Below are positions 1 to 59,040 of a stretch of DNA of 64,000 bases, one piece after another. Location: the IMG/VR virus record IMGVR_UViG_3300031466_000001, positions 1 through 64,000 of that record. The stretch is one strand, 5' to 3'. The notes under the pieces are model-generated. The model did no database searches. It saw only the letters and a list, made by a program, of their open reading frames with translations, and was not told where the DNA came from. The stretch's first letter is position 1, and every line of letters begins with the position of its first letter. The translations under genes and the position numbers were made by a program. The stretch is from a virus. Lineage: Duplodnaviria > Caudoviricetes.

Positions 1-113
1 ATATTAATAATAATATTAATAATAATATTAATAATAATAATATTAATAATATTACTAATAATAATATTAATAATAATATTAATAATAATACTAATAAAAT
101 ATTATTTATATAA
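1..113. repeat. Imperfect tandem repeat of (AAT)n-ATT units, about 12-nt period, nearly 100% AT
   Basis: ATATTAATAATA-type units repeated. The + frame from base 3 reads INNNINNN...TNKILFI* with stop at 111-113, so it may be the end of a gene starting outside the window. Confidence 0.85.
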
Positions 114-194
114 CTATTATATAATAAACACCGGGAGGAAGAGAAAAAACAATAAGAATCCCAAAGGATTTTTCTAAAAAAAATAAAAAGAAGA

Positions 195-238
195 AGAACG
201 GTTTGAGGAGGACGAGACTCAAACCGTTCTTTATTTTT
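195..238. terminator. Bidirectional intrinsic terminator
   Basis: AGAACGGTTTGAG/CTCAAACCGTTCT stem flanked by A- and T-tracts. Confidence 0.75.
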
Positions 239-273
239 CTATATTTGATAATTATTAATGTTGAATCTAGATG

Positions 274-480
274 TTAAATGTCTGCCGTGAACATGTATGT
301 TCTCCCGATGCTCTCAGCAGGTACACCTTTTTCAATCAGCACTTCTTTAATTGTTTCAAGAGGGAACGCTCCTTGGTAAGGAACGCCCACGAAAGTTTTA
401 CCCTTTCGTTTTTCCGTTACCAAACCCTTAATGGGTTCAATTTCTTTAGTCACACAGATGCCTATACAGTTGATGATCAT
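274..480 (-). CDS. Hypothetical protein (early)
   Basis: ORF with GGAGG before the ATG at 480; early-type motif at 512-521. Confidence 0.7.
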   Translation of the reverse strand: MIINCIGICVTKEIEPIKGLVTEKRKGKTFVGVPYQGAFPLETIKEVLIEKGVPAESIGRTYMFTADI

Positions 481-511
481 GGAGATCAACCTCCGTTTTT
501 ATTTATTATAT

Positions 512-521
512 ATAATATGTA
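512..521 (-). promoter_or_regulatory. Early-type phage promoter motif (TACATATTAT)
   Basis: Variant of the recurrent TATATATTAT motif upstream of small genes. Confidence 0.55.
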
Positions 522-552
522 GAGTTTTATACAACTCTACAATCTTGCTTAA

Positions 553-597
553 TCAAGCAACAAACGGTGGCACCAACGGTTCTTTAATACCTTTCAT
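553..597 (-). CDS. Micro-ORF MKGIKEPLVPPFVA (14 aa)
   Basis: AGGAGG 8 nt before the ATG; the RBS lies inside an inverted repeat (599-617/728-745). Confidence 0.4.
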   Translation of the reverse strand: MKGIKEPLVPPFVA

Positions 598-741
598 GCT
601 GATATCCTCCTAATGTAATTTTTTTCACGTGTTCCGTAATCGACATTTTTTTAGTCGGCGGAACATACAAAATTTCTCAGTTGCTACGACATTGATGTTT
701 AAACGACGTGAACTGCCACCAACATTGTACATTAGTGGATA

Positions 742-765
742 TCAGGTTTGAGTCACTTTTAACAT
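742..765 (-). CDS. Micro-ORF / candidate leader peptide MLKVTQT (7 aa)
   Basis: GGAGGTG 5 nt before the ATG; its TGA stop sits in the helix that pairs with the next RBS. Confidence 0.4.
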   Translation of the reverse strand: MLKVTQT

Positions 766-821
766 TTTTACACCTCCGCAATACCTGAAGCATTAGGTAA
801 TTATTTTGTTTATACACGAAA

Positions 822-831
822 ATAATGTATA
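822..831 (-). promoter_or_regulatory. Early-type promoter motif (TATACATTAT)
   Basis: Same motif as at 58910. Confidence 0.55.
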
Positions 832-886
832 ATTTTATATGCTTAAAATACGATTTTTTCAGTTATTATAATGAATTGTATTTTTC

Positions 887-1237
887 TTACATTAAAGTCT
901 TTCTTTCAATTTGGATATAGATGTCCAAAATTCCTTCTTCCTCATCATCATTTGTCAATTCTAAATTGAAAAGATATAACTTCAAATCATCACTTTCCTT
1001 AAGTACTTCAAAAACATCGTCATCATATACCTCCTCATCGATATTTTGTGCCTCAAAATACGAACGAAGACAGTCAAGGATCAAGGATTCATTGAACTCA
1101 GAAAAGACGAATGTGCTTATTGCAGCGCGATGTTCACTGTCTCTCGTCTTTATAGGAATCCTATCAATAGTTCCAAAACTACTGATAGCTACATGATCAG
1201 TTATTGATACTACCCATATACTTTTATTTTGTGTCAT
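887..1237 (-). CDS. Hypothetical acidic protein (early)
   Basis: 116-aa ORF, AAGGA RBS, early motif at 1270-1279. Confidence 0.8.
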   Translation of the reverse strand: MTQNKSIWVVSITDHVAISSFGTIDRIPIKTRDSEHRAAISTFVFSEFNESLILDCLRSYFEAQNIDEEVYDDDVFEVLKESDDLKLYLFNLELTNDDEEEGILDIYIQIERKTLM

Positions 1238-1269
1238 TTTTTTTCATCCTTTCACTTTGTGCTGCAAAT

Positions 1270-1279
1270 ATAATATATA
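1270..1279 (-). promoter_or_regulatory. Early-type promoter motif TATATATTAT
   Basis: Exact motif upstream of the gene starting at 1237. Confidence 0.6.
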
Positions 1280-1333
1280 ATCGTGATTTACGACCATATT
1301 AAAAAATGAAATATTTTTTATTGTCTGATTTAT

Positions 1334-1345
1334 AACATAAAAATA
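1334..1345 (+). promoter_or_regulatory. Late-type promoter AACA-N6-TA
   Basis: AACA TAAAAA TA; no long ORF downstream. Confidence 0.55.
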
Positions 1346-1581
1346 ATGGGGCAGACAAAGGACCCCAGGAGGCTATAGGTGACAACAGCCGTCGACTTTG
1401 CCCTATAGTATCAAAACTTTTGTCGTTTTCCCAAGAAATACTTGGGACAACGATCCCAAGTTGAGGGAATTTTATTATTAAAATTAATTAAAATAAAAAT
1501 AAAACGGTCAATCTTAGATCTATTAAAATCCCACTAGAAGAAATGGGGTTTTGATAGATTTGAGATTGACCGTTTTTTATT
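1345..1581 (+). ncRNA. Putative late structured RNA with a 9-codon ORF and a long 3-prime hairpin
   Basis: GC-richer than the flanks; helices 1346-1355/1397-1406, 1373-1379/1402-1408 and 1422-1435/1441-1454; 32-bp stem 1501-1532/1545-1576 whose four non-Watson-Crick pairs are all G.U on the + strand. Confidence 0.55.
1379..1408 (+). CDS. Micro-ORF MTTAVDFAL (9 aa)
   Basis: AGGAGG at 1367-1372 and GTG at 1379, 34 nt after the late promoter, matching the spacing of other late genes. Confidence 0.4.
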   Translation: MTTAVDFAL

Positions 1582-1588
1582 TGTGTTT

Positions 1589-1873
1589 TTAGCAGAAATT
1601 TTCATAGTCTATAATTTCTTTAATTAGATTATCTCTTGAGAATATTTGTTCATATAGCGAATTATCCATTATATTTTCCAATGTAGGTATAATGTGGTTG
1701 ATATTTAATATAACAGGAGAACGATATATTCCTTCTCTTAATAAATTATGATCAAATAATTTATGTAGTTTACTAACGAATTCTTCTTTATTTTCTTCTT
1801 TTTCATAAATTGCATATCTACACACATCTTTATACCTGACAGCAGCACCAATAACAAACCTTTTTTTGATCAT
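1589..1873 (-). CDS. Hypothetical protein
   Basis: 94-aa ORF with phage-like composition. Confidence 0.65.
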   Translation of the reverse strand: MIKKRFVIGAAVRYKDVCRYAIYEKEENKEEFVSKLHKLFDHNLLREGIYRSPVILNINHIIPTLENIMDNSLYEQIFSRDNLIKEIIDYENFC

Positions 1874-1973
1874 CTTTTCCCTATATACTATAGACTCAGA
1901 AAATAATTTTAATTTATTTGGACTAGGTACATTTAATAATTCTTCGAGAAAACGTATATATAATTAAACAATT

Positions 1974-2456
1974 TTATATTCCTATACGAATTTTGTTAAT
2001 GATATCTGACAAGTATTCTCCAGGTCCAAGAATTATATGATTAATAAATCTCCCGTCACTCATTAATCCTCTGATAAAAACATCCCAATTTTCATTTAGA
2101 AGTTTGATGAACTTTTCATCACTACCCCTTACACGAAATCTTTCAAGATATTCATCTTTGAGTTCGATTAGCGGGTAGACGAGATATGGTTGAAAACCTT
2201 CTTTGAAAAGAGAATCCAGAACTTCTTTATGCGTTGATACTAGAATGATGTCGGCATTATGTAAATTTGAGGAGATGTGATTAATATAGTTTGCTGGGAA
2301 CTCAGGATTTCGAACTCCCGGAGAAATCCAACTAAATTTACTGCTATCAGAATCCATAATTTTAAGTCCCAAAGATTTCTGGTTCTTAGTCAGAGTGGAT
2401 TTACCTACTCCCGGAAAACCACAGATAATTTTTGCCAGTTCTTTCATTTTTATCAT
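1974..2456 (-). CDS. P-loop NTPase / nucleotide-kinase-like protein
   Basis: N-terminal Walker A IICGFPGVGKS followed by DSDSS. Confidence 0.75.
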   Translation of the reverse strand: MIKMKELAKIICGFPGVGKSTLTKNQKSLGLKIMDSDSSKFSWISPGVRNPEFPANYINHISSNLHNADIILVSTHKEVLDSLFKEGFQPYLVYPLIELKDEYLERFRVRGSDEKFIKLLNENWDVFIRGLMSDGRFINHIILGPGEYLSDIINKIRIGI

Positions 2457-2557
2457 ACTCCGTTTAGATGATAAATTAAATAAATGTAATTTATATAATC
2501 ATTTTTAAAATGAATGATTCGGTATAATTATATAAACAAAGGGTTAAAAATAAGGGG

Positions 2558-3067
2558 GTGGACATATTGGCTTCTTCGTTCAGTCCCACAAAACCATCGT
2601 TTTATATTTTTATTAAAGGGATGCCTGAGATCATTGGGAGGGAATTCCCTAATTTTTCCAATACTATGACGAAAATGATCGAAGCCCTTACTTTTAACGT
2701 GGAATTATTTAAAAAAGATAAAGATGAGACCGAACTATTGATTACAATTTTTGAACTTGAGGGGGAACCCGTTGCTAATTTATTTAACCTTCTTCGGTAT
2801 TTATTCATTATTTCAAACGGAGAAGAAAATTATTTTAGGGATACTATTGAGGAAAAATTTGGTATAGATATGTATTTAGTTAAAACTGTAGATGGAAAAA
2901 TAGAGGATGCTTGCAAATTAAATGGTCTGATTGTTAAATCAATTGATGATGAAGAAATTGAACATTCTGGAATGGCTGGGGTTGTATGTCGTAAAGTTAA
3001 AATGATAACAAGGCATAAGCATAATCTCACCGAAGAAGAATTCGATGAAATAAAAAAATTGATGTGA
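2558..3067 (+). CDS. Hypothetical protein
   Basis: 169-aa ORF with RBS. Confidence 0.75.
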   Translation: MDILASSFSPTKPSFYIFIKGMPEIIGREFPNFSNTMTKMIEALTFNVELFKKDKDETELLITIFELEGEPVANLFNLLRYLFIISNGEENYFRDTIEEKFGIDMYLVKTVDGKIEDACKLNGLIVKSIDDEEIEHSGMAGVVCRKVKMITRHKHNLTEEEFDEIKKLM

Positions 3068-3121
3068 ATCTATGAATTGAAAATCAATATTTTGGCTTTA
3101 CTTTTAATATTTCCGATCACC

Positions 3122-3133
3122 AACAATGTGGTA
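3122..3133 (+). promoter_or_regulatory. Late-type promoter AACA-N6-TA
   Basis: AACA ATGTGG TA, 29 nt before the RNAP beta start. Confidence 0.7.
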
Positions 3134-3161
3134 AGTATACCATATTTGTGAGGTGATCGGA

Positions 3162-6100
3162 ATGATTTTTGTGGATTCTACACCACATCTTAGAGTTTAT
3201 AGACAAAGAGTAATTTTTCCGGTAGATCCTAAAATGCCGAGTAAGGGAAGTATGGCATTTATTATCAATAATGATATTGAGTCCTCTATTGCACTGATTA
3301 ATAGTAATAGAATTTCCCATAATAATCGTTTCCATATATATTTCATGGATAATATCTATGAGGGCAGATTCTTTGGTCGTTATTTTAGGGAAAATAAAAC
3401 CAAAGAACGCTTTGATCTATATGAAAAAGTCCAAGCTAAAGCTGGTAACATTATTTGTCAAAATAGCTTTGTCTCTATCGGTGGTAGAAACTTCTTTTTT
3501 GATCTTATTATGATCCATGAGATTTTCTTTAAAATTGCCGCAAAGAAAGTTGTTCCATATCGTATTAAATCAGAGCAATATATTGATTTTCTTAAAAATA
3601 TTTTTAACGATCAGAGATTCAATCAATACAGTAAAAAAATCATTCTTATTGATGTCAATTCCTGGGTTAAAAATATAAAGAAAGAAATTAAAGGGCGTAA
3701 ATTTTTTGACAATCCAATCTTCTTGTTATATTTTGCAATGACGAAAAACTTTAATAAATTCAAAGAGCTTGGAGATATGAATATTATCTTCTATTCGAAC
3801 GATATCTCCCTTAGATTGAATCCTTCCCTTGCGGATAAAATGTCTTATTCTCTTTTCCGCAATGAAATCTCGAAATTAACTGGTAAAATCACCCTCCCTG
3901 ATGAAAATACGATTGATAAAGAGCTCCAAAAAGATGAAGTCTTTGATGAAGTTATCAAAAACTTTTCTCAACATTACAGATTTACTGGCGATGATGAAGA
4001 ATCGGATAGTGAATTTGAAGAAAAAGTAAGAGATCGCCTCGATGAAATGACCGAAGAAAATAAAGAGCTCGGAAGTCTTGAAGGGAAAGAACTTGAAGAG
4101 CGTTTAACCAATGAACTTTTAGGCGACCAGAAAATTCTCAAAGATTTGAATGAAATTATCACTCAAAATCGTGTAGGTAAAAATATCGCATCTACCAAAC
4201 GAGATGAAGTACTCAGGGAGAAACAAAAAGAGCTCAAATTAGAAAATCAAACTCTCGAAGATCTGCAAAAAATGCTCGATAGATCTGCTACTCTTGAGAG
4301 CTATTCTGTTGAAGATAAAGTAAAAACGACAAATAAAAATGTTACTAAAATCAGATACCCTAATTTTGAAAAATCTTATAATGAAAAACTTTTTAGGCAG
4401 GATATGCTTAATATTCTCTTGTCGTTAAATGATAAATCTATTCCTATCTATATTAGAGATATTAAAGTGGAAGATACATCAGATGAGCTTAACTATAGAG
4501 ACACATATACGGTTCAGCTTGAAGATGCTAACCGTGTTCGACATACATTAAAATTTGACATGCCTAAATTCATTGACGATAAATTCATGTATATTAATGG
4601 CAACAAAAAGCTGATTATCAAGCAGCTTCTTATGAAACCTATCACTAAAACCGGACCTGATGAGGTTCAGATCGTATCTAACTATAATAAGATCTTCATT
4701 CGTAGATACGGACAAAAGACATCTTCTAAATTGGAGAAGTTTAAAAAGGCTATTTCCAAGACAAAAACTTCAGCTAACATTGTAGTTAAAAATGGCAATA
4801 ACCTTAAAGCAAATAGTAAATATCTCACGACCATTGAATATGACGAATTGGCTAAAGATTATACCAGCATTAGAATCAAAAAAACGGAATTTCTGTTCAA
4901 TCAGGATGAAGTTCGAAAAATTCTTGAAGAGAAAAAGATTAAAATTAATGACAATGAGTTGTGCATAGGTTTCATTGATAATAAAACACCGATTATCGTT
5001 AACCTTGATACGCAATTAATCGGTGATATGGATATCATTGATTTTATCCTTTCTATCGAAGCAGGTAAACCTATCAGGGACGTTTATGAAGGGGAAACAA
5101 GCGGTAAGAAATTTGTTTATTCTCGTGCTACTATAATGGCTAAGCAGGTTCCGGTTATTCTTCTTCTCGGTTATCTTGAAGGTCTTTCAACTATCCTGCG
5201 TAAAGCAGAAATTAAACACTATTTCACAGATAAACGTCCTCGTGACCTCACCGATAACCAAGGTGTAGTCCAATTTTCGGATGGTTTTCTGGTTTATGAA
5301 AAGTATCCGTTTGAAAATTCCCTTCTTATGAATGCATTTGCAGATATTCCTACAAAGGGATTCTCATATGCAGATTTTGATAGTAAAGAAGTTTACCTCG
5401 ACATTTTCGATACTATGTTTGGGACCAGAATTATAGGTAATGCATTCGATAACTTCTATGAATTGATGATCGATCCGATTACCAAGGAAGTTCTGGAAGA
5501 TCTCAATCTTCCCACTGATTTCGTCAATGTTGTTTTATATGCAAACTCATTGCTTGCCGACAACTCATATCTTAAAGAAAACAATATGAGTCTTTATCGC
5601 ATAAGATCTAATGAGCTTGTTAATGCATATCTCTATAAGGCAATTGCAACAGCTTATATTCAGTATAGACTGACCGCAAATAATAATAATCCTGTTAAAA
5701 TGTCAGTACCAAGAGATGTTGTAATAAAACAGATTTTGATGGCTCAAACGGTCGAAGATTACAGCACGTTGAATCCCATTGTTGAACTTGAAAAATCTCG
5801 TGCTATCACTCCTAAGGGACCCAGTGGCCTTAACCTGGAACAAGCGTACACACAGGATAAACGTTCTTATGATAGATCTATGCTTGGAATTATCGCAATG
5901 TCTACTTCACCTGACGCTAACGTAGGCGTGGTTAGACAATTGACGCTTGAACCTAGTATCAAGAGTCCGCGGGGCTATATTGAGATTGCAGGAGAAAATC
6001 TCGATCATCTTAAAGATGCAAATCTATTCTCTCCTGCGGAACTCCTCTCTCCTCTTGGCGTAACCCGCGACGACTCTAACCGTACAGCTATGGCTACAAA

Positions 6101-7331
6101 ACAATCAAAACACATTATTCCTGTAGAAAAAGCATCTCCAGTACTTATTTCCAATGGTGCTGAACAAATTATCCCGTATCATCTTTCCAACGATTTTACT
6201 GTTGTTGCGAAAGCAGATGGTGAAGTTGTTGAAGTAAATGAAGAGGCGGGATTAATTATTATAGGATATTATTCTGAAGATAAAAAAGCTGGTTCGAAGA
6301 AGACAAAAGCTGGTATTAGTTCTTATCAATCGATCGATATCAGTCCTCGCATCGTAAAGAACGGTGCGGGTGGCTTCTATCTTTCGAATAAACTTATTTG
6401 TAATCTTAAAGTTGGAGACAAATTTAAGAAAAATGACATTATTGCATCTGATGAAAAATTCTTCACTCGATCTAAAATCGATGGAACCAGATTTAATATT
6501 GGTTCCTTGCAGAAAATAGCATGCATGTCTAGTTACTCGACATATGAAGATTCTACGTTTATCACAAAGAAACTTACTGAGGATATGGCTTCCGAGATAG
6601 TAATGTGTAAAACTATTACTCTGGGTAAGAATGCAAACGTGGACTTTTTGGTCAAACCCGGAGATAATATTACTGTCGGAGACGATCTCATTAGATTTGA
6701 GATCTCTTTCGAAGATGATAGCCTTAATAAATTCCTTGAAACTGTAGGTGAAAATGTTAAAGAGGAAATCAAGTCTCTTGGTAAAACACCCATCAAATCT
6801 AAATATACTGGTGTAATTGAAGACGTTAAAGTGTACTCTACCGTAGAGCTTGATGAGCTTTCTCCATCTCTGAGAAAAATTGTCAGCAATTATTATAAGC
6901 GCATTGATAGAAAGAAAAATATTATCAATAAATATGATAAATCTAATTCTGTATACAAAATGGGAGTTCTTCTCAACGAACCTACAGGTAAGATAGAAAC
7001 TAAAGATGGTAAAGTTAAAGGTAATGAAGTTGGAGAAGGTGTTCTCATTGAAATTTATATCAAATACCGTGACGTAATGGGTATTGGTGACAAACTTGCA
7101 TTCTTTACTGCATTGAAGAGTATTAACGGGGAAATTATTCCTGAAGGGTATGAACCGTTCTCGGAATATAGACCCAATGAGGAAGTATCTTCATTCGTTG
7201 CTCCTGGTGCAGTATTGGCACGTATGACACCATCTATTCTCCTGACTATGTTTGGTAATAAAGTTTTGGTTGAATTGAAACGACATTTGCAGGAAATTTA
7301 TACAGGAAAACCTTGGGAACCTACAAAATAA
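3162..7331 (+). CDS. rpoB: Phage multisubunit RNA polymerase beta subunit, large N-terminal part (virion type, phiKZ gp178-like)
   Basis: Motifs FDMPKF..FMYINGNKK, GPSGL..RSYDRSMLG..SPDANVGVV, RTAMATKQSKH, TYEDST, GIGDKL and PGAVLARM; the C-terminal beta region is absent; about 400-aa N-terminal extension; late promoter. Confidence 0.92.
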   Translation: MIFVDSTPHLRVYRQRVIFPVDPKMPSKGSMAFIINNDIESSIALINSNRISHNNRFHIYFMDNIYEGRFFGRYFRENKTKERFDLYEKVQAKAGNIICQNSFVSIGGRNFFFDLIMIHEIFFKIAAKKVVPYRIKSEQYIDFLKNIFNDQRFNQYSKKIILIDVNSWVKNIKKEIKGRKFFDNPIFLLYFAMTKNFNKFKELGDMNIIFYSNDISLRLNPSLADKMSYSLFRNEISKLTGKITLPDENTIDKELQKDEVFDEVIKNFSQHYRFTGDDEESDSEFEEKVRDRLDEMTEENKELGSLEGKELEERLTNELLGDQKILKDLNEIITQNRVGKNIASTKRDEVLREKQKELKLENQTLEDLQKMLDRSATLESYSVEDKVKTTNKNVTKIRYPNFEKSYNEKLFRQDMLNILLSLNDKSIPIYIRDIKVEDTSDELNYRDTYTVQLEDANRVRHTLKFDMPKFIDDKFMYINGNKKLIIKQLLMKPITKTGPDEVQIVSNYNKIFIRRYGQKTSSKLEKFKKAISKTKTSANIVVKNGNNLKANSKYLTTIEYDELAKDYTSIRIKKTEFLFNQDEVRKILEEKKIKINDNELCIGFIDNKTPIIVNLDTQLIGDMDIIDFILSIEAGKPIRDVYEGETSGKKFVYSRATIMAKQVPVILLLGYLEGLSTILRKAEIKHYFTDKRPRDLTDNQGVVQFSDGFLVYEKYPFENSLLMNAFADIPTKGFSYADFDSKEVYLDIFDTMFGTRIIGNAFDNFYELMIDPITKEVLEDLNLPTDFVNVVLYANSLLADNSYLKENNMSLYRIRSNELVNAYLYKAIATAYIQYRLTANNNNPVKMSVPRDVVIKQILMAQTVEDYSTLNPIVELEKSRAITPKGPSGLNLEQAYTQDKRSYDRSMLGIIAMSTSPDANVGVVRQLTLEPSIKSPRGYIEIAGENLDHLKDANLFSPAELLSPLGVTRDDSNRTAMATKQSKHIIPVEKASPVLISNGAEQIIPYHLSNDFTVVAKADGEVVEVNEEAGLIIIGYYSEDKKAGSKKTKAGISSYQSIDISPRIVKNGAGGFYLSNKLICNLKVGDKFKKNDIIASDEKFFTRSKIDGTRFNIGSLQKIACMSSYSTYEDSTFITKKLTEDMASEIVMCKTITLGKNANVDFLVKPGDNITVGDDLIRFEISFEDDSLNKFLETVGENVKEEIKSLGKTPIKSKYTGVIEDVKVYSTVELDELSPSLRKIVSNYYKRIDRKKNIINKYDKSNSVYKMGVLLNEPTGKIETKDGKVKGNEVGEGVLIEIYIKYRDVMGIGDKLAFFTALKSINGEIIPEGYEPFSEYRPNEEVSSFVAPGAVLARMTPSILLTMFGNKVLVELKRHLQEIYTGKPWEPTK

Positions 7332-33661: not shown

Positions 33662-33673
33662 AACATATTTATA
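33662..33673 (+). promoter_or_regulatory. Late-type promoter AACA-N6-TA
   Basis: AACA TATTTA TA. Confidence 0.7.
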
Positions 33674-33701
33674 AAAAATTAAGGAAAGAAAGGTGAAAAC
33701 T

Positions 33702-34832
33702 GTGAGTGCTATTTTCGGCAAACAAAAGTCCCAAAATTGGGATGAAGGTTTCGACGTACCGGTTATCGAAGGGTACGATGTTGAAGACAATGGTGATCTG
33801 ATCGCACTTCAGGAATCCTACGACGATCAACTTAGGATCATTCAAAGCCTCCATGCTATTGATACCGAAGTTATTGATTTCAAGAGCGAATATGACTCGC
33901 TTAAAGAATCTGCTTCGGAACATGAACTGGAAACGTTCGTTGAAGAACGTGAAGCAGTTCTCGAAGCTAGCTTCAAGGATGCATGGGAGAAGGTTAAACA
34001 ATTCTTCCAAAATCTTTGGGCAAAGCTCAAATCGTTCATCCTCACGGCTGTACGTTATTTCGACAAGTACTTCCGTAGCTCCAAAACTTTCATCGAAAAG
34101 TATGAGGATGATCTGAAGAAGCTCAACCTTAACGGATTCAAATTCAAGATGTTCGAATATACGAACCTTGAAACCAATCACTTCACCTCCTATAAGGATA
34201 GCCGTGAAGTGAAGAAGCTGTACGATCTGGTATTCTCGACTGCAACCAACGAGAACCTCATCGAGGATCTTCGTGGGGCCGTCAGATCGACCAAAGAAAC
34301 TCGTGAAGAGTATCTCAATGGTAGACGCGGTCAAATGTTTAACAAACCGTTCCTCACTCCGGACGAATATCGTCGTGAGCTCTATGCATTTTTCCGCAAT
34401 GGTGCAGAGAGCCCTGAGGATCGCAAAGAAATCCCGGTTAATATTGACGATGTTATTTCCGGCCTCAAAAACACGTCGTCTCTCAAGAAGAATATCGAAG
34501 AACTTCAAAAGGTTGTCAATAAGGACTTTGCTGAAGTTCTCCGTGACGTTGAAGCTCTCAGGAAGAACCTGATGAGTGCAAAGGCCGGAGAAAATGGCAC
34601 CGAAGTAGCAAACGTGAAGGACACGGATGGCGAAAGAAAGGACGTTGTCCTCTCCGCTGAAAATCGTGGACTGCGTCTTGAAGGTGTTCGGGCGCTGGCT
34701 TCCATGCTTTCTGGTGCACAAGATATTTCTCTCACGTATTTCCGTGCATGGCGCGAAGCTGTGATGGAACGTGACCGTACCTATCGTTCGGTTGTAATGG
34801 CCGCATTCCGCTATAAGCCGGACAAGAAATAA
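33702..34832 (+). CDS. Internal head (inner-body/ejection-type) protein, paralog 1
   Basis: Acidic propeptide, then VLE-ASFKDAWEKVKQFFQNLWAKLKSF amphipathic helix; strongly biased codons; GTG start after AAGGTGA. Confidence 0.7.
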   Translation: MSAIFGKQKSQNWDEGFDVPVIEGYDVEDNGDLIALQESYDDQLRIIQSLHAIDTEVIDFKSEYDSLKESASEHELETFVEEREAVLEASFKDAWEKVKQFFQNLWAKLKSFILTAVRYFDKYFRSSKTFIEKYEDDLKKLNLNGFKFKMFEYTNLETNHFTSYKDSREVKKLYDLVFSTATNENLIEDLRGAVRSTKETREEYLNGRRGQMFNKPFLTPDEYRRELYAFFRNGAESPEDRKEIPVNIDDVISGLKNTSSLKKNIEELQKVVNKDFAEVLRDVEALRKNLMSAKAGENGTEVANVKDTDGERKDVVLSAENRGLRLEGVRALASMLSGAQDISLTYFRAWREAVMERDRTYRSVVMAAFRYKPDKK

Positions 34833-34889
34833 TATCACATTATAAAATTAACGACAGTATGTCGGATTAAATAAAGGAGGAAAAGGAAA

Positions 34890-36032
34890 ATGTCGATTAT
34901 CTTTGGTAGTCGTCAAAGACCGTCTGCTGATGAGGCGGTCCTTGAATCTCTCAATACCATTAAAACCGGCTTCATCGATGAAACTCCGGCCGGTCTGCAG
35001 CAAATTGTTACCGAATCTGCTGAAGAAATGTACCGTCTGTCCGGAAGTCTGTATATTTCCGACGTCATGATTACCGAGTCCGTTGTTATGGAAGGGGCTC
35101 AATTGGAACCCTTGGTTGAAAATTTCGTAAAGAACACCTGGGACAAACTGAAAGAAGTTTTCATGAAGCTTTGGGCAAAGCTTCGTGAGTGGTTCAACAA
35201 GGTCAAAACTTTCCTGAAGCGCGTGTTCCTGAGTGGCGAAAAATTCATCAAGGAATTTGGTGAAATTATTCGCAGCAAGAGCGACGAAGGCTTTACTTAT
35301 ACTGGCTATCAGTACAATGTAGATGCCGGTGATAAAGCTGTCGACGCAAAACGTCGTATTATCGACGGCTTCCTCGCTGAACAAATCAAGTTTGAAATCA
35401 GCGACGCTCAGAAAGAAGTAATCGGTATTAACACCGATGGTGAAGGTCAAGAAGGTTCTATCCGTAAGAATGCGGCTACGCTGGACCAAGATAAACTGAA
35501 GACCGATCTCCGCAAGAGCCTGGGTGATGAAAACTTCACCGAAGTTCTCAAGGAAATTCGTCTTATTTATCGTGGCGGCAAAGATGAGCCGGTTGAAATC
35601 AAGGGTATTGACAAAGACCGGATGATCAACTTTATCCAAAAGAATGCAAGCAGCGTTAAAGAAATTGAAGAAAGACAAAAACGTATGGATGCTGACTTCA
35701 AGCAAGTCTTGGGAGCTATCGACAAAGCTCGTTCCAAGATTCAATCCAACAAAGAACTCAGCGAAGCTGAGAAGGCTAAGCTGACCACGTATGCTACGAC
35801 CAAGTATCGCGTAGCTCACTACGCACTGGGTCTGCAACAATCGCTGACCTCGGTCACGGTTGACATGTATCGTGAAGTGGCGTCGAAGTATGAGTCGGTT
35901 CTCAAATCTTTCCTCCGATTCAAACCGGCTAAAGAAAGCTACGGTTTTGACAATGAGGAAGAAGAAAATGCATCGGCTCAACAACATTCGACTTCTCAAT
36001 CCATTCTGGAATCGGCCGCTAAGTGGCTGTAA
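34890..36032 (+). CDS. Internal head protein, paralog 2
   Basis: LVE-NFVKNTWDKLKEVFMKLWAKLREWF; same architecture as paralog 1. Confidence 0.7.
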   Translation: MSIIFGSRQRPSADEAVLESLNTIKTGFIDETPAGLQQIVTESAEEMYRLSGSLYISDVMITESVVMEGAQLEPLVENFVKNTWDKLKEVFMKLWAKLREWFNKVKTFLKRVFLSGEKFIKEFGEIIRSKSDEGFTYTGYQYNVDAGDKAVDAKRRIIDGFLAEQIKFEISDAQKEVIGINTDGEGQEGSIRKNAATLDQDKLKTDLRKSLGDENFTEVLKEIRLIYRGGKDEPVEIKGIDKDRMINFIQKNASSVKEIEERQKRMDADFKQVLGAIDKARSKIQSNKELSEAEKAKLTTYATTKYRVAHYALGLQQSLTSVTVDMYREVASKYESVLKSFLRFKPAKESYGFDNEEEENASAQQHSTSQSILESAAKWL

Positions 36033-56882: not shown

Positions 56883-57267
56883 TGTAATTACACTTTTCAA
56901 TCAGCTAACTCACGATGAGTTAGCTGATTATTCACTATTCGAAAAAGTTTTGGATTCGCACTACGAAAAATTTAAATATTTCTATCGTTTGATGGAAAAT
57001 ATTTCCCTTGAAGGAGTTAATAAGATACGCTGTTCTAATTCTGACAGTCCGGGAGCAATTGAATTTAGAATCGACTTCGAAAGTAATAAAAATCTCAGAG
57101 AATTTAATAAGGAATTTTCTAATATTGCAAAAACCTTTAAAGGTTATCCTGCAAAGTATTTTTCAGTCGATATTAAAGTCGATAAAAAATCCCTCTACAT
57201 CACTATAGAGAACAAAAACATCTGTAGTGAGGAGGATATTTATGAAGATAGATTTAATTCCAACTAA
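56875..57267 (+). CDS. Hypothetical protein
   Basis: GGAGG RBS before the ATG at 56875; overlaps the rpoC-like start. Confidence 0.7.
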   Translation: MLDVITLFNQLTHDELADYSLFEKVLDSHYEKFKYFYRLMENISLEGVNKIRCSNSDSPGAIEFRIDFESNKNLREFNKEFSNIAKTFKGYPAKYFSVDIKVDKKSLYITIENKNICSEEDIYEDRFNSN

Positions 57268-58909: not shown

Positions 58910-58932
58910 TATACATTATAGACACGAGTATA
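58910..58932 (+). promoter_or_regulatory. Early TATACATTAT plus late-variant GACA-N6-TA motifs
   Basis: 58910-58919 and 58921-58932. Confidence 0.55.
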
Positions 58933-58965
58933 AGAAATAAAAACCAATAACGCGGGAGGTGCCGT

Positions 58966-59040
58966 ATGAGAATTACACTCACGGACAGGATTCTGAGAAG
59001 CGGTCCCTATGAGGGCGAGACCGTTGGTAGACCGGCTTGA
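58966..59040 (+). CDS. Micro-ORF MRITLTDRILRSGPYEGETVGRPA (24 aa) in a structured RNA
   Basis: GGGAGGTG RBS; own promoter motifs and terminator. Confidence 0.55.
   Translation: MRITLTDRILRSGPYEGETVGRPA

Follow-up and report, generated by a model that had tools for sequence, protein, structure and literature searches.

The DNA analysed here, referred to below as the window, comprises positions 1 to 64,000 of the IMG/VR virus record IMGVR_UViG_3300031466_000001 and is AT-rich (35% GC over the whole 64 kb). The RNA polymerase beta-like protein encoded at 3153–7331 is of the divergent multisubunit type and is 35–38% identical to the proteins of the Bacillus phages AR9 and PBS1 and of Staphylococcus jumbo phages, indicating that the genome is that of an uncultured AR9-like jumbo phage. 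The element described below lies on the minus strand in a 406-nucleotide (nt) gap, from the gene for a 116-amino-acid (aa) protein (1237–887) to the gene for a 68-aa protein (480–274). It combines a promoter motif, two micro-open reading frames (ORF1 and ORF2), each preceded by a Shine-Dalgarno (SD) sequence, and a long-range helix, P1, in which the end of ORF1 is complementary to the ribosome-binding site (RBS) of ORF2. Its principal features, in the order in which the minus strand would be transcribed, are as follows; the pairing probabilities are predicted values.

822–831, minus strand: early promoter motif of the virion RNA polymerase type, TATACATTAT, then N6 and G815 (from a motif scan and the AR9 consensus)
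771–777, minus strand: SD1, GGAGGTG, 7 nt before ATG 765
742–765, minus strand: ORF1, 7 codons, encoding MLKVTQT, with its stop TGA (744–742) within the P1 5′ arm
728–745, minus strand: P1 5′ arm, CTGATATCC-A-CTAATGTA, pairing with 617–599
745–728/617–599, minus strand: helix P1, pairing probability 0.92–0.94
678–715, minus strand: hairpin P2 (715–711/682–678, 709–707/688–686 and 705–702/693–690), pairing probability about 0.94
665–659/636–630 and 657–654/644–641, minus strand: hairpin P3, pairing probability about 0.75
599–617, minus strand: P1 3′ arm, TACATTAG-GA-GGATATCAG, containing SD2, with G609 and A608 unpaired in an internal loop
553–597, minus strand: ORF2, 14 codons, encoding MKGIKEPLVPPFVA, from ATG 597 to the stop at 555–553, in the same frame as ORF1
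560–555/550–545, minus strand: small hairpin UUGCUU/AAGCAA over the ORF2 stop, pairing probability 0.77
518–541, minus strand: terminator-like 9-bp hairpin (stem 541–533/526–518, pairing probability 0.98) with an AU-rich tail
494–490 and 480–274, minus strand: SD3, GGAGG, and the 68-aa gene, the next gene after the element

For the two micro-ORFs and their strong SD sequences, all strings and coordinates quoted in a preliminary description of the locus were verified on the minus strand; SD2, AGGAGG, lies at 611–606, 8 nt before ATG 597. The combination of GGAGG with an ATG at 4–10 nt occurs 26 times in 128 kb (both strands), about 18 cases being true gene starts and only about 5 seemingly spurious, so that two such sites within 170 nt of spacer are unexpected (roughly 1e-4, with about 0.01 expected for each canonical site on the coding strand). 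Neither of the encoded peptides (7 and 14 aa) is hydrophobic, and ORF2 includes a Pro-Pro pair. Recoding or read-through of the shared ORF1-ORF2 frame was rejected, as it would require reading TGA, TGA and TAG, and a bypass of the T4 gene-60 type was set aside because no matching landing codon is present.

P1 consists of 9 bp (745–737/607–599) and 8 bp (735–728/617–610), entirely Watson-Crick, interrupted by a 1x2 internal loop with A736 opposite G609 and A608, and the duplex has a computed energy of −21.4 kcal/mol. This confirms the 17-bp pairing first proposed between the segment carrying the first stop codon and the second RBS region. A count of helices of at least 17 bp with loops of 50–300 nt across the 64-kb window, excluding the AT-only repeat at 1–130, returned two, P1 and a long hairpin at 1497–1582; shuffled sequences gave 0.2 per window, and under a stricter two-part helix descriptor 0.07 were expected per window. 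The core of the observation, P1 together with the two RBS sites, is non-random.

The fold was computed on the inferred 346-nt transcript (815–470). P1, P2 and P3 are predicted to form a three-way junction in which P1 is the closing helix and encloses a 110-nt two-hairpin domain. The minor helices listed in the preliminary description (712–706/630–624, 665–659/636–630, 720–714/572–566 and 788–783/747–742) are indeed perfect 6–7-bp complements, but by a rough estimate helices of this length, the crossing pair 720–714/572–566 among them, are about as numerous as expected by chance, and the inner helix 712–706/630–624 does not hold, being out-competed by the P2 hairpin (P 0.94). The segment 840–540 is moderately unusual in its stability, with z = −2.66 against shuffles. 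Pairing in trans of the P1 arms with a hairpin at the start of the RNA polymerase beta gene was weak by hand alignment, and a T-box was rejected, the likeness being limited to a loose GGUG..ACCG without an Rfam match.

In AR9 the early promoter consensus is AAATATATATTAT-N6-G(+1) (PMC5312081) and the late promoter consensus is AACA-N6-TA/G (PMC9209446). The window holds 11 copies of TATA[TCA]ATTAT-N6-G/A/T, mostly 25–60 nt ahead of gene starts, and 19 AACA-N6-TA sites, mostly 20–35 nt ahead of starts. The early motif reported at 822–831 is present as TATACATTAT at 831–822 on the minus strand and fits the early class, which would place +1 at G815; at position 827 three relatives (L001, L002 and L005) have the T of the consensus. 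On the plus strand of 400–950 no early or late phage promoter motif was found, and sigma-70-like matches on the plus strand of the element are weak and at chance level. Downstream, hairpin 541–518 passes a lax terminator scan, with the tail TATTATATAT, which is a poor U-tract. Three further elements on the minus strand belong to this group:

845–856, minus strand: upstream element AAATCGTATTTT, unique in the window and common to the homologous early promoter-leader cassettes of phage record G002 (see below)
623–634, minus strand: speculative late-promoter-like AACA-CGTGAA-AA, one mismatch from AACA-N6-TA, 25 nt before ATG 597 and inside the P1-enclosed region
505–514, minus strand: TATATATAAT, a second motif of the early type with one mismatch, immediately ahead of the 68-aa gene's RBS

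The late-like motif at 634–623, in which the conserved T at −1 is missing, is not picked up by a scan for AAC[AT]-N6-T[AG]. The early-like motif at 514–505 may, as judged from its sequence and position, be the 68-aa gene's own promoter. Given the promoter, the terminator-like hairpin and this second motif, the unit may either stand alone as an RNA of about 300 nt or serve as leader to the 68-aa gene.

We suggest that the region would act as an early transcription unit of an AR9/PBS1-like jumbo phage. Its virion-polymerase-type promoter at 831–822 would start an RNA at about G815, in which P1 would close the three-way junction and bury SD2 and the AUG of the 14-codon ORF2. ORF1, with an accessible canonical RBS, would end at a UGA lying among the opening bases of the P1 5′ arm, most of which a ribosome completing ORF1 would melt. 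Initiation on ORF2 would then be possible only while ORF1 is being translated, that is, by translational coupling through unfolding. The unit would end at, or read through, the weak terminator-like hairpin 541–518 just before the 68-aa gene, and its output would be the 14-aa peptide, or else ribosome traffic acting on the hairpin and on the 68-aa gene.

Modelled energetics are consistent with such coupling. The predicted cost of opening the initiation site is 13.3 kcal/mol for ORF2, compared with 5.2 for ORF1 and 8.0 for the 68-aa gene. The ORF1 stop (744–742) lies within the P1 5′ arm, so that a terminating ribosome must melt the arm, and in a constrained fold the blocking of 759–730, which models a ribosome on the ORF1 stop, abolishes P1. 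The design is compatible with coupling by unfolding, yet it is not a clean one, as discussed below.

Exact-protein look-ups recovered 24 metagenomic loci that are 98–100% identical. Within 815–518 they carry six variants, and 0/6 break a predicted pair. Three lie in loops or linkers (G668A, a GTTG duplication and G532A, the last in the loop of hairpin 541–518), and three are C-to-U changes opposite G: C745U in P1, C519U in hairpin 541–518 and C797U in a hypothetical alternative helix. C745U (C745T, in L003) is synonymous in ORF1 and leaves a G.U pair in P1. The stem of hairpin 541–518 is likewise kept in the relatives, with C519T giving a G.U pair, and its loop has a 4-nt insertion and a G>A change. 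In the opposite strand C745U and C519U would create A.C mismatches; pairing is therefore preserved only in the minus-strand RNA. ORF2 carries 0 variants in any relative, and the core (792–545) has 2 variants per 248 nt, compared with about 2% in flanking genes and spacers.

The preliminary description had not recognised the locus as a described element, and this was borne out: a cmscan search against Rfam 15 over 1–3200, both strands, to E = 10, gave no match in the core 792–553. The sole overlapping match, caiA RNA at 548–478 (26.6 bits against a threshold of 55.5), spans the tail of hairpin 560–545, the terminator-like hairpin and the next RBS. A search for tRNA and tmRNA found none. Neither blastn nor megablast of the region and of 8 kb, nor tblastn of the 116-aa and 68-aa neighbours, gave a match among GenBank phages, and the nearest available record (G001, 29 kb) is without the region. 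A pattern scan of metagenomes for the outer P1 arms returned 17 matches, of which 0 scored with a covariance model of P1, P2 and P3, indicating chance matches.

A related phage record, G002, whose RNA polymerase beta is 61% identical, bears on the origin of the element. It contains two full copies of a homologous early cassette, with a third in L051 identical to one of them, and the order is AAATCGTA-TTT, early promoter, TTTGTATGTTCCGC, small hairpin, GTGAAAAA, GGGAGG and ATG. Each copy precedes a different real gene, one of 128 aa. All the landmarks of the clade cassette, with an SD in place of the GGGAGG, are present and collinear in the window, where local alignment with the G002 cassette scores 453 against 384 +/- 18 for shuffles. 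The clearest landmark in the window is the following:

671–658, minus strand: 14-mer TTTGTATGTTCCGC, an exact match to the G002 leader cassettes, which runs into P3 (to 630) and then GTGAAAAA as in G002

The window copy has about 125 nt extra before the 14-mer, consisting of SD1, ORF1, the P1 5′ arm and P2. SD2 and ATG 597 occupy the position of a genuine gene start in G002, and just 14 codons follow in the window. By this comparison of sequences, the ORF2 start may be what is left of a lost gene. ORF1 opens with 13 bases, ATGTTAAAAGTGA, that also resemble ATGTTAAAAATGA, which lies close to where the 128-aa gene of G002 begins. The preliminary description had named a longer ORF in relatives as evidence against the switch, and this is partly borne out: the G002 cassette does precede real genes. 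No translated similarity to those genes was found. As a test for a decayed gene, the region was searched with tblastx and the 128-aa protein of G002 with tblastn; these returned nothing besides the promoter and leader similarity, and a VVATE/IIATE resemblance to the G002 protein was rejected as being at chance level. The G002 cassette copies are about 85% identical to each other and lie at 90588–90758 and 187147–187300 (loci L054 1690–1860, L052 and L051). Their RBS-proximal module, GATTCTGTGGGAGGAATTAAAT, recurs at two further places, an instance of modular regulatory cassette reuse in a jumbo phage.

A design like that of P1 is also found at a bona fide gene. The covariance model of P1, P2 and P3 matched one other site in the window, at 3108–3163 (23.9 bits, E 2.6e-4, on a rough calibration), which is the start of the RNA polymerase beta-like gene:

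3112–3164, plus strand: P1-like RBS-masking hairpin, CCGATCACC-A-ACAATGTGG..CCATATTTGT-GA-GGTGATCGG-A-ATG, at the start of the RNA polymerase beta-like gene

The layout is that of P1: a 9-bp helix, an A facing GA and then a further helix, with the SD carried on the 3′ arm and the stem ending 1–2 nt ahead of the AUG. Between the two, three base pairs are compensated and a GAU..CC-A..AAUGU / GA-GG..AUC.G pattern is shared. The hairpin is a 22-bp bipartite one of −30 kcal/mol, and the gene most likely starts at ATG 3162 (GAGGTG, then 6 nt) and not at the GTG 3153 of the ORF list. A perfect late promoter, AACA-ATGTGG-TA (3122–3133), lies within it, so that, as with e, soc and I-TevI of T4, late transcripts would not include the arm that masks the RBS. 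The outer helix and an embedded late promoter (AACA-TTCTTA-TA) are retained in G002 (L028). The hairpin would gate expression through the late promoter, in the manner of T4 e and soc, or would double as the terminator of the upstream gene. Its likeness to P1 may reflect module reuse, or convergence forced by the masking of a GGAGG. A further masked start is present on the plus strand at 57150–57245: an upstream hairpin, CCUC...UCACUAUAGA / UCUGUAGUGAGGAGG (−26 kcal/mol across the start region), covers the GGAGG of a 526-codon ORF (ATG 57242).

It appears, then, that a switch in which translation of a leader ORF is coupled to a masked second cistron is the best single reading of the locus and a plausible one, to be held tentatively, since it is anatomy and modelled thermodynamics that suggest it. 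It is favoured by the early-class promoter with its putative +1, the rarity and high predicted pairing probability of P1, the two canonical initiation sites, the higher predicted opening cost at ORF2, the absence of variants that break a pair, the low variant density of the core and the P1-like design at the RNA polymerase beta gene. The switch interpretation given in the preliminary description stands in so far as the anatomy fits a leader ORF and a masked RBS, but it is weakened in that SD2 is only partly freed and that genes stand at the ORF2 position in G002.

Several points weigh against it. With a ribosome modelled on the ORF1 stop, SD2 goes from 0.29 to only 0.43 unpaired, because a second perfect partner, CCUAAUG at 797–791, can re-pair with CAUUAGG at 615–609; in the same kind of model, a ribosome at the ORF2 stop leaves SD3 unchanged. 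ORF2 ends 73 nt ahead of the next start, whose gene has its own RBS, and 14 codons are an odd regulated output. In G002, real genes follow the homologous leader where ORF2 stands here, a point in favour of ORF2 being a stump. In terms of stability the segment 750–596 is only in the top 3% (composition-adjusted z = −2.4, rank 91/3186 windows), both strands fold equally well (−43.2 and −42.3), and predicted SD pairing is frequent among real genes here, so that mean SD pairing probability fails to set the ORF2 site apart. The relatives, at 98–100% identity, offer no covariation; the evidence from their variants is directional yet weak and not significant (p about 0.1). The covariance model detected no homolog in 12 related jumbo-phage records nor in 23 further loci.

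Nearly as likely as the coupled switch is evolutionary debris, a recombination or deletion scar among modular early promoter-leader-RBS cassettes. SD1 with ORF1 and SD2 with ORF2 would then be the stumps of lost gene starts, hairpin 541–518 the terminator of a lost gene, and P1 either coincidental or an inverted duplication. The homologous cassettes of G002, each driving a different real gene where the same landmarks here lead to 14 codons, argue for such an origin, as do the resemblance of the ORF1 start to ATGTTAAAAATGA, the gene-like GC of the element (0.38–0.41) and the hypervariability of the early region among strains. It is harder to reconcile with a 17-bp helix that masks precisely the second RBS, expected just 0.07–0.2 times per window, with two SDs that are both still perfect, and with the lack of translated similarity to the 128-aa protein or to any other gene. 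Moreover, variants are no denser than in coding DNA and those in stems keep their pairing, and it would be unusual for so compact an early region to carry about 340 nt that serve no purpose. Should it be debris, the locus would illustrate the shuffling of such cassettes in hypervariable early regions, and would warn that units of a promoter, an SD and a micro-ORF in these phages can be gene stumps.

The other explanations are less probable. A non-coding early RNA of about 300 nt (815 to about 515), or the target of a protein or RNase, is unlikely. P1 would be a site of the RNase III type, or the operator of a phage translational regulator that also recognises the RNA polymerase beta start, with the micro-ORFs incidental or just loading ribosomes for stability. 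The early RNAs of T7 and SP82 are cleaved at similar bipartite hairpins. The promoter and the terminator-like hairpin bound a unit, the next gene possibly having a separate promoter (514–505); the three-way junction contains robust P2 and P3 hairpins; and the beta-start hairpin shares its pattern with compensated pairs and keeps its outer helix in G002. Against this, neither an Rfam match nor a homolog in relatives was found, the tail of hairpin 541–518 is a poor U-tract, and the late promoter embedded in the beta hairpin, or an overlap with a terminator, accounts better for that hairpin; with two members only, the likeness may also be convergence from masking a GGAGG. More doubtful again is a transcription attenuator or riboswitch-like leader of the 68-aa gene, in which P1, P2 and P3 would sense a ligand or ORF2 ribosome traffic and set read-through of hairpin 541–518. 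The order of promoter, structured domain, terminator-like hairpin, RBS and gene is that of a Firmicute leader, the ORF2 stop would put the ribosome edge beside the first bases of the hairpin, and the Pro-Pro pair would fit. Yet inspection revealed no antiterminator pairing, the U-tract is weak, no known aptamer was matched in Rfam, the distant 68-aa homologs P0011 and P0012 are without a comparable leader in the short upstream DNA on their contigs, and the 68-aa gene may have its own promoter. A feature of the DNA itself, with the inverted repeats serving as a protein-binding site, a cruciform or mobile-element ends, is very improbable. In its favour, P1 is all Watson-Crick and the strands fold equally well, but no second copy occurs in the window or in related genomes, no target-site duplication was seen on inspection, on the transcribed strand the arms fall exactly on a stop codon and an RBS, and the C-to-U stem variants preserve pairing only in minus-strand RNA.

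Returning to the coupled-translation switch, its closest counterparts are plasmid replication genes. In IncFII repA/tap and in IncB and IncI-alpha repZ/repY, the RBS of the regulated cistron is sequestered in a helix; a short leader ORF, equipped with an RBS of its own, terminates at this helix, and translation of the leader unfolds it. The predicted ORF1 similarly has its own RBS upstream of the masked cistron, with its stop in the P1 5′ arm and SD2 in the 3′ arm, and the candidate 7-bp loop-to-downstream pairing 720–714/572–566 recalls the activator pseudoknot of repZ. The differences are that the plasmid systems control a full Rep protein and have an antisense RNA regulator, whereas the masked cistron here has 14 codons, no phage promoter motif lies opposite the leader, and P1 encloses a 110-nt two-hairpin domain. 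In hok/mok, too, long-range pairing masks a downstream RBS to which an overlapping leader frame controls access. The toxins of hok/mok and Fst-like systems, however, are hydrophobic proteins of about 25–50 aa, unlike the ORFs of 7 and 14 aa here, and the element has neither an antisense promoter motif nor the fold-back 5′-3′ pairing that defines hok mRNA.

The cat-86 and ermC leaders are very short ORFs (9 codons, MVKTD..., in cat-86) upstream of inverted repeats that sequester the next RBS, and ORF1 (MLKVTQT) is likewise a short leader upstream of a masked RBS. Those systems switch upon drug-induced stalling in the leader, have adjacent repeats around a small loop and control a resistance enzyme. 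No such feature is evident here, where the repeats are 110 nt apart and a 14-codon ORF and an MBG-like 68-aa protein lie downstream. In T4 the RBS of e (lysozyme), soc and I-TevI is masked in early read-through transcripts and free in those from a late promoter within the hairpin. Judged by sequence, the hairpin at the RNA polymerase beta start is arranged in exactly this way and contains the late AACA-N6-TA, whereas P1 encloses a one-mismatch late-like motif without the conserved T at −1 and leads to a 14-aa product, and T4 has no leader ORF. Finally, in RNA phages (the Min Jou interaction of MS2, and Q-beta, PMC2978339) a downstream initiation site is kept hidden by long-range base pairing until ribosomes on the upstream cistron open the helix. 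That arrangement serves full-length genes in an RNA genome, in contrast to two micro-ORFs in an early transcript of a DNA jumbo phage.

If the proposed switch is correct, it would be a leader-ORF-operated lock on an RBS in the early transcriptome of an AR9-like jumbo phage, a group that transcribes independently of the host. To our knowledge, little has been described on translational control in these phages. The mechanism, unmasking of a sequestered RBS by a leader ORF, is already known, and it is the specific arrangement that would be new. Together with its near-twin at the beta start, P1 would suggest a reusable phage module for temporal or translation-dependent gating. A more far-reaching version, which we regard as quite unlikely, is that of a dedicated ribosome-engaging early RNA. 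Here the 7-codon ORF would be a translation-dependent key to a 17-bp lock, freeing a second minimal cistron, and the RNA would report host translational capacity, or time itself by it, in the first minutes of infection. It would be one of a wider, overlooked set of units made of a promoter, a structured RNA and a micro-ORF, its lock design shared with the RNA polymerase beta start.

A unit at 58910–59040 on the plus strand contains the sole other copy of the C-variant early motif (TATACATTAT-N6-G), followed by GGGAGGTG and a 24-codon ORF, and may be a second early mini-cistron of the same style.

Neither the 116-aa nor the 68-aa neighbour was assigned to any Pfam or PHROG family, and a search of 5.8 billion proteins with both returned only clusters at 97% identity or more. 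The 68-aa protein matches the repeats of a 1365-aa protein with 13 MBG (YGX-type) domains and a type IX secretion signal domain (E 6.7e-8), as well as two stand-alone proteins of 75 and 79 aa; the relationship to the MBG repeats is distant, and the protein may, from its sequence, be a free-standing MBG-like domain. An exhaustive HMMER search with it gave two small distant homologs. Peptide-pattern searches of IMG/VR with three neighbouring proteins yielded no relatives.

Among strains the early region is hypervariable. A block of about 1.9 kb, from a 94-aa gene to the 68-aa gene, is conserved and the flanks on either side are variable; upstream gene content differs, and contigs end at about 1966. 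Positions 1–120 are a pure A/T tandem repeat of ATTATTAATATT-type units, and the relatives' metagenome assemblies tend to break there and at about 1966. An imperfect inverted repeat with 44-nt arms at 1490–1587 accounts for the most stable 155-nt windows anywhere in the 64 kb (z about −6) and looks like a long terminator after the 94-aa gene. Elsewhere, at 33669–36032, two tandem head-paralog genes are each opposed by an antisense ORF of near-equal length (for example 33693–34832 on the plus strand against 33669–34838 on the minus, and 34890–36032 on the plus strand against 34848–35999 on the minus). Such long antisense ORFs are unusual at 35% GC and are probably an effect of codon bias.

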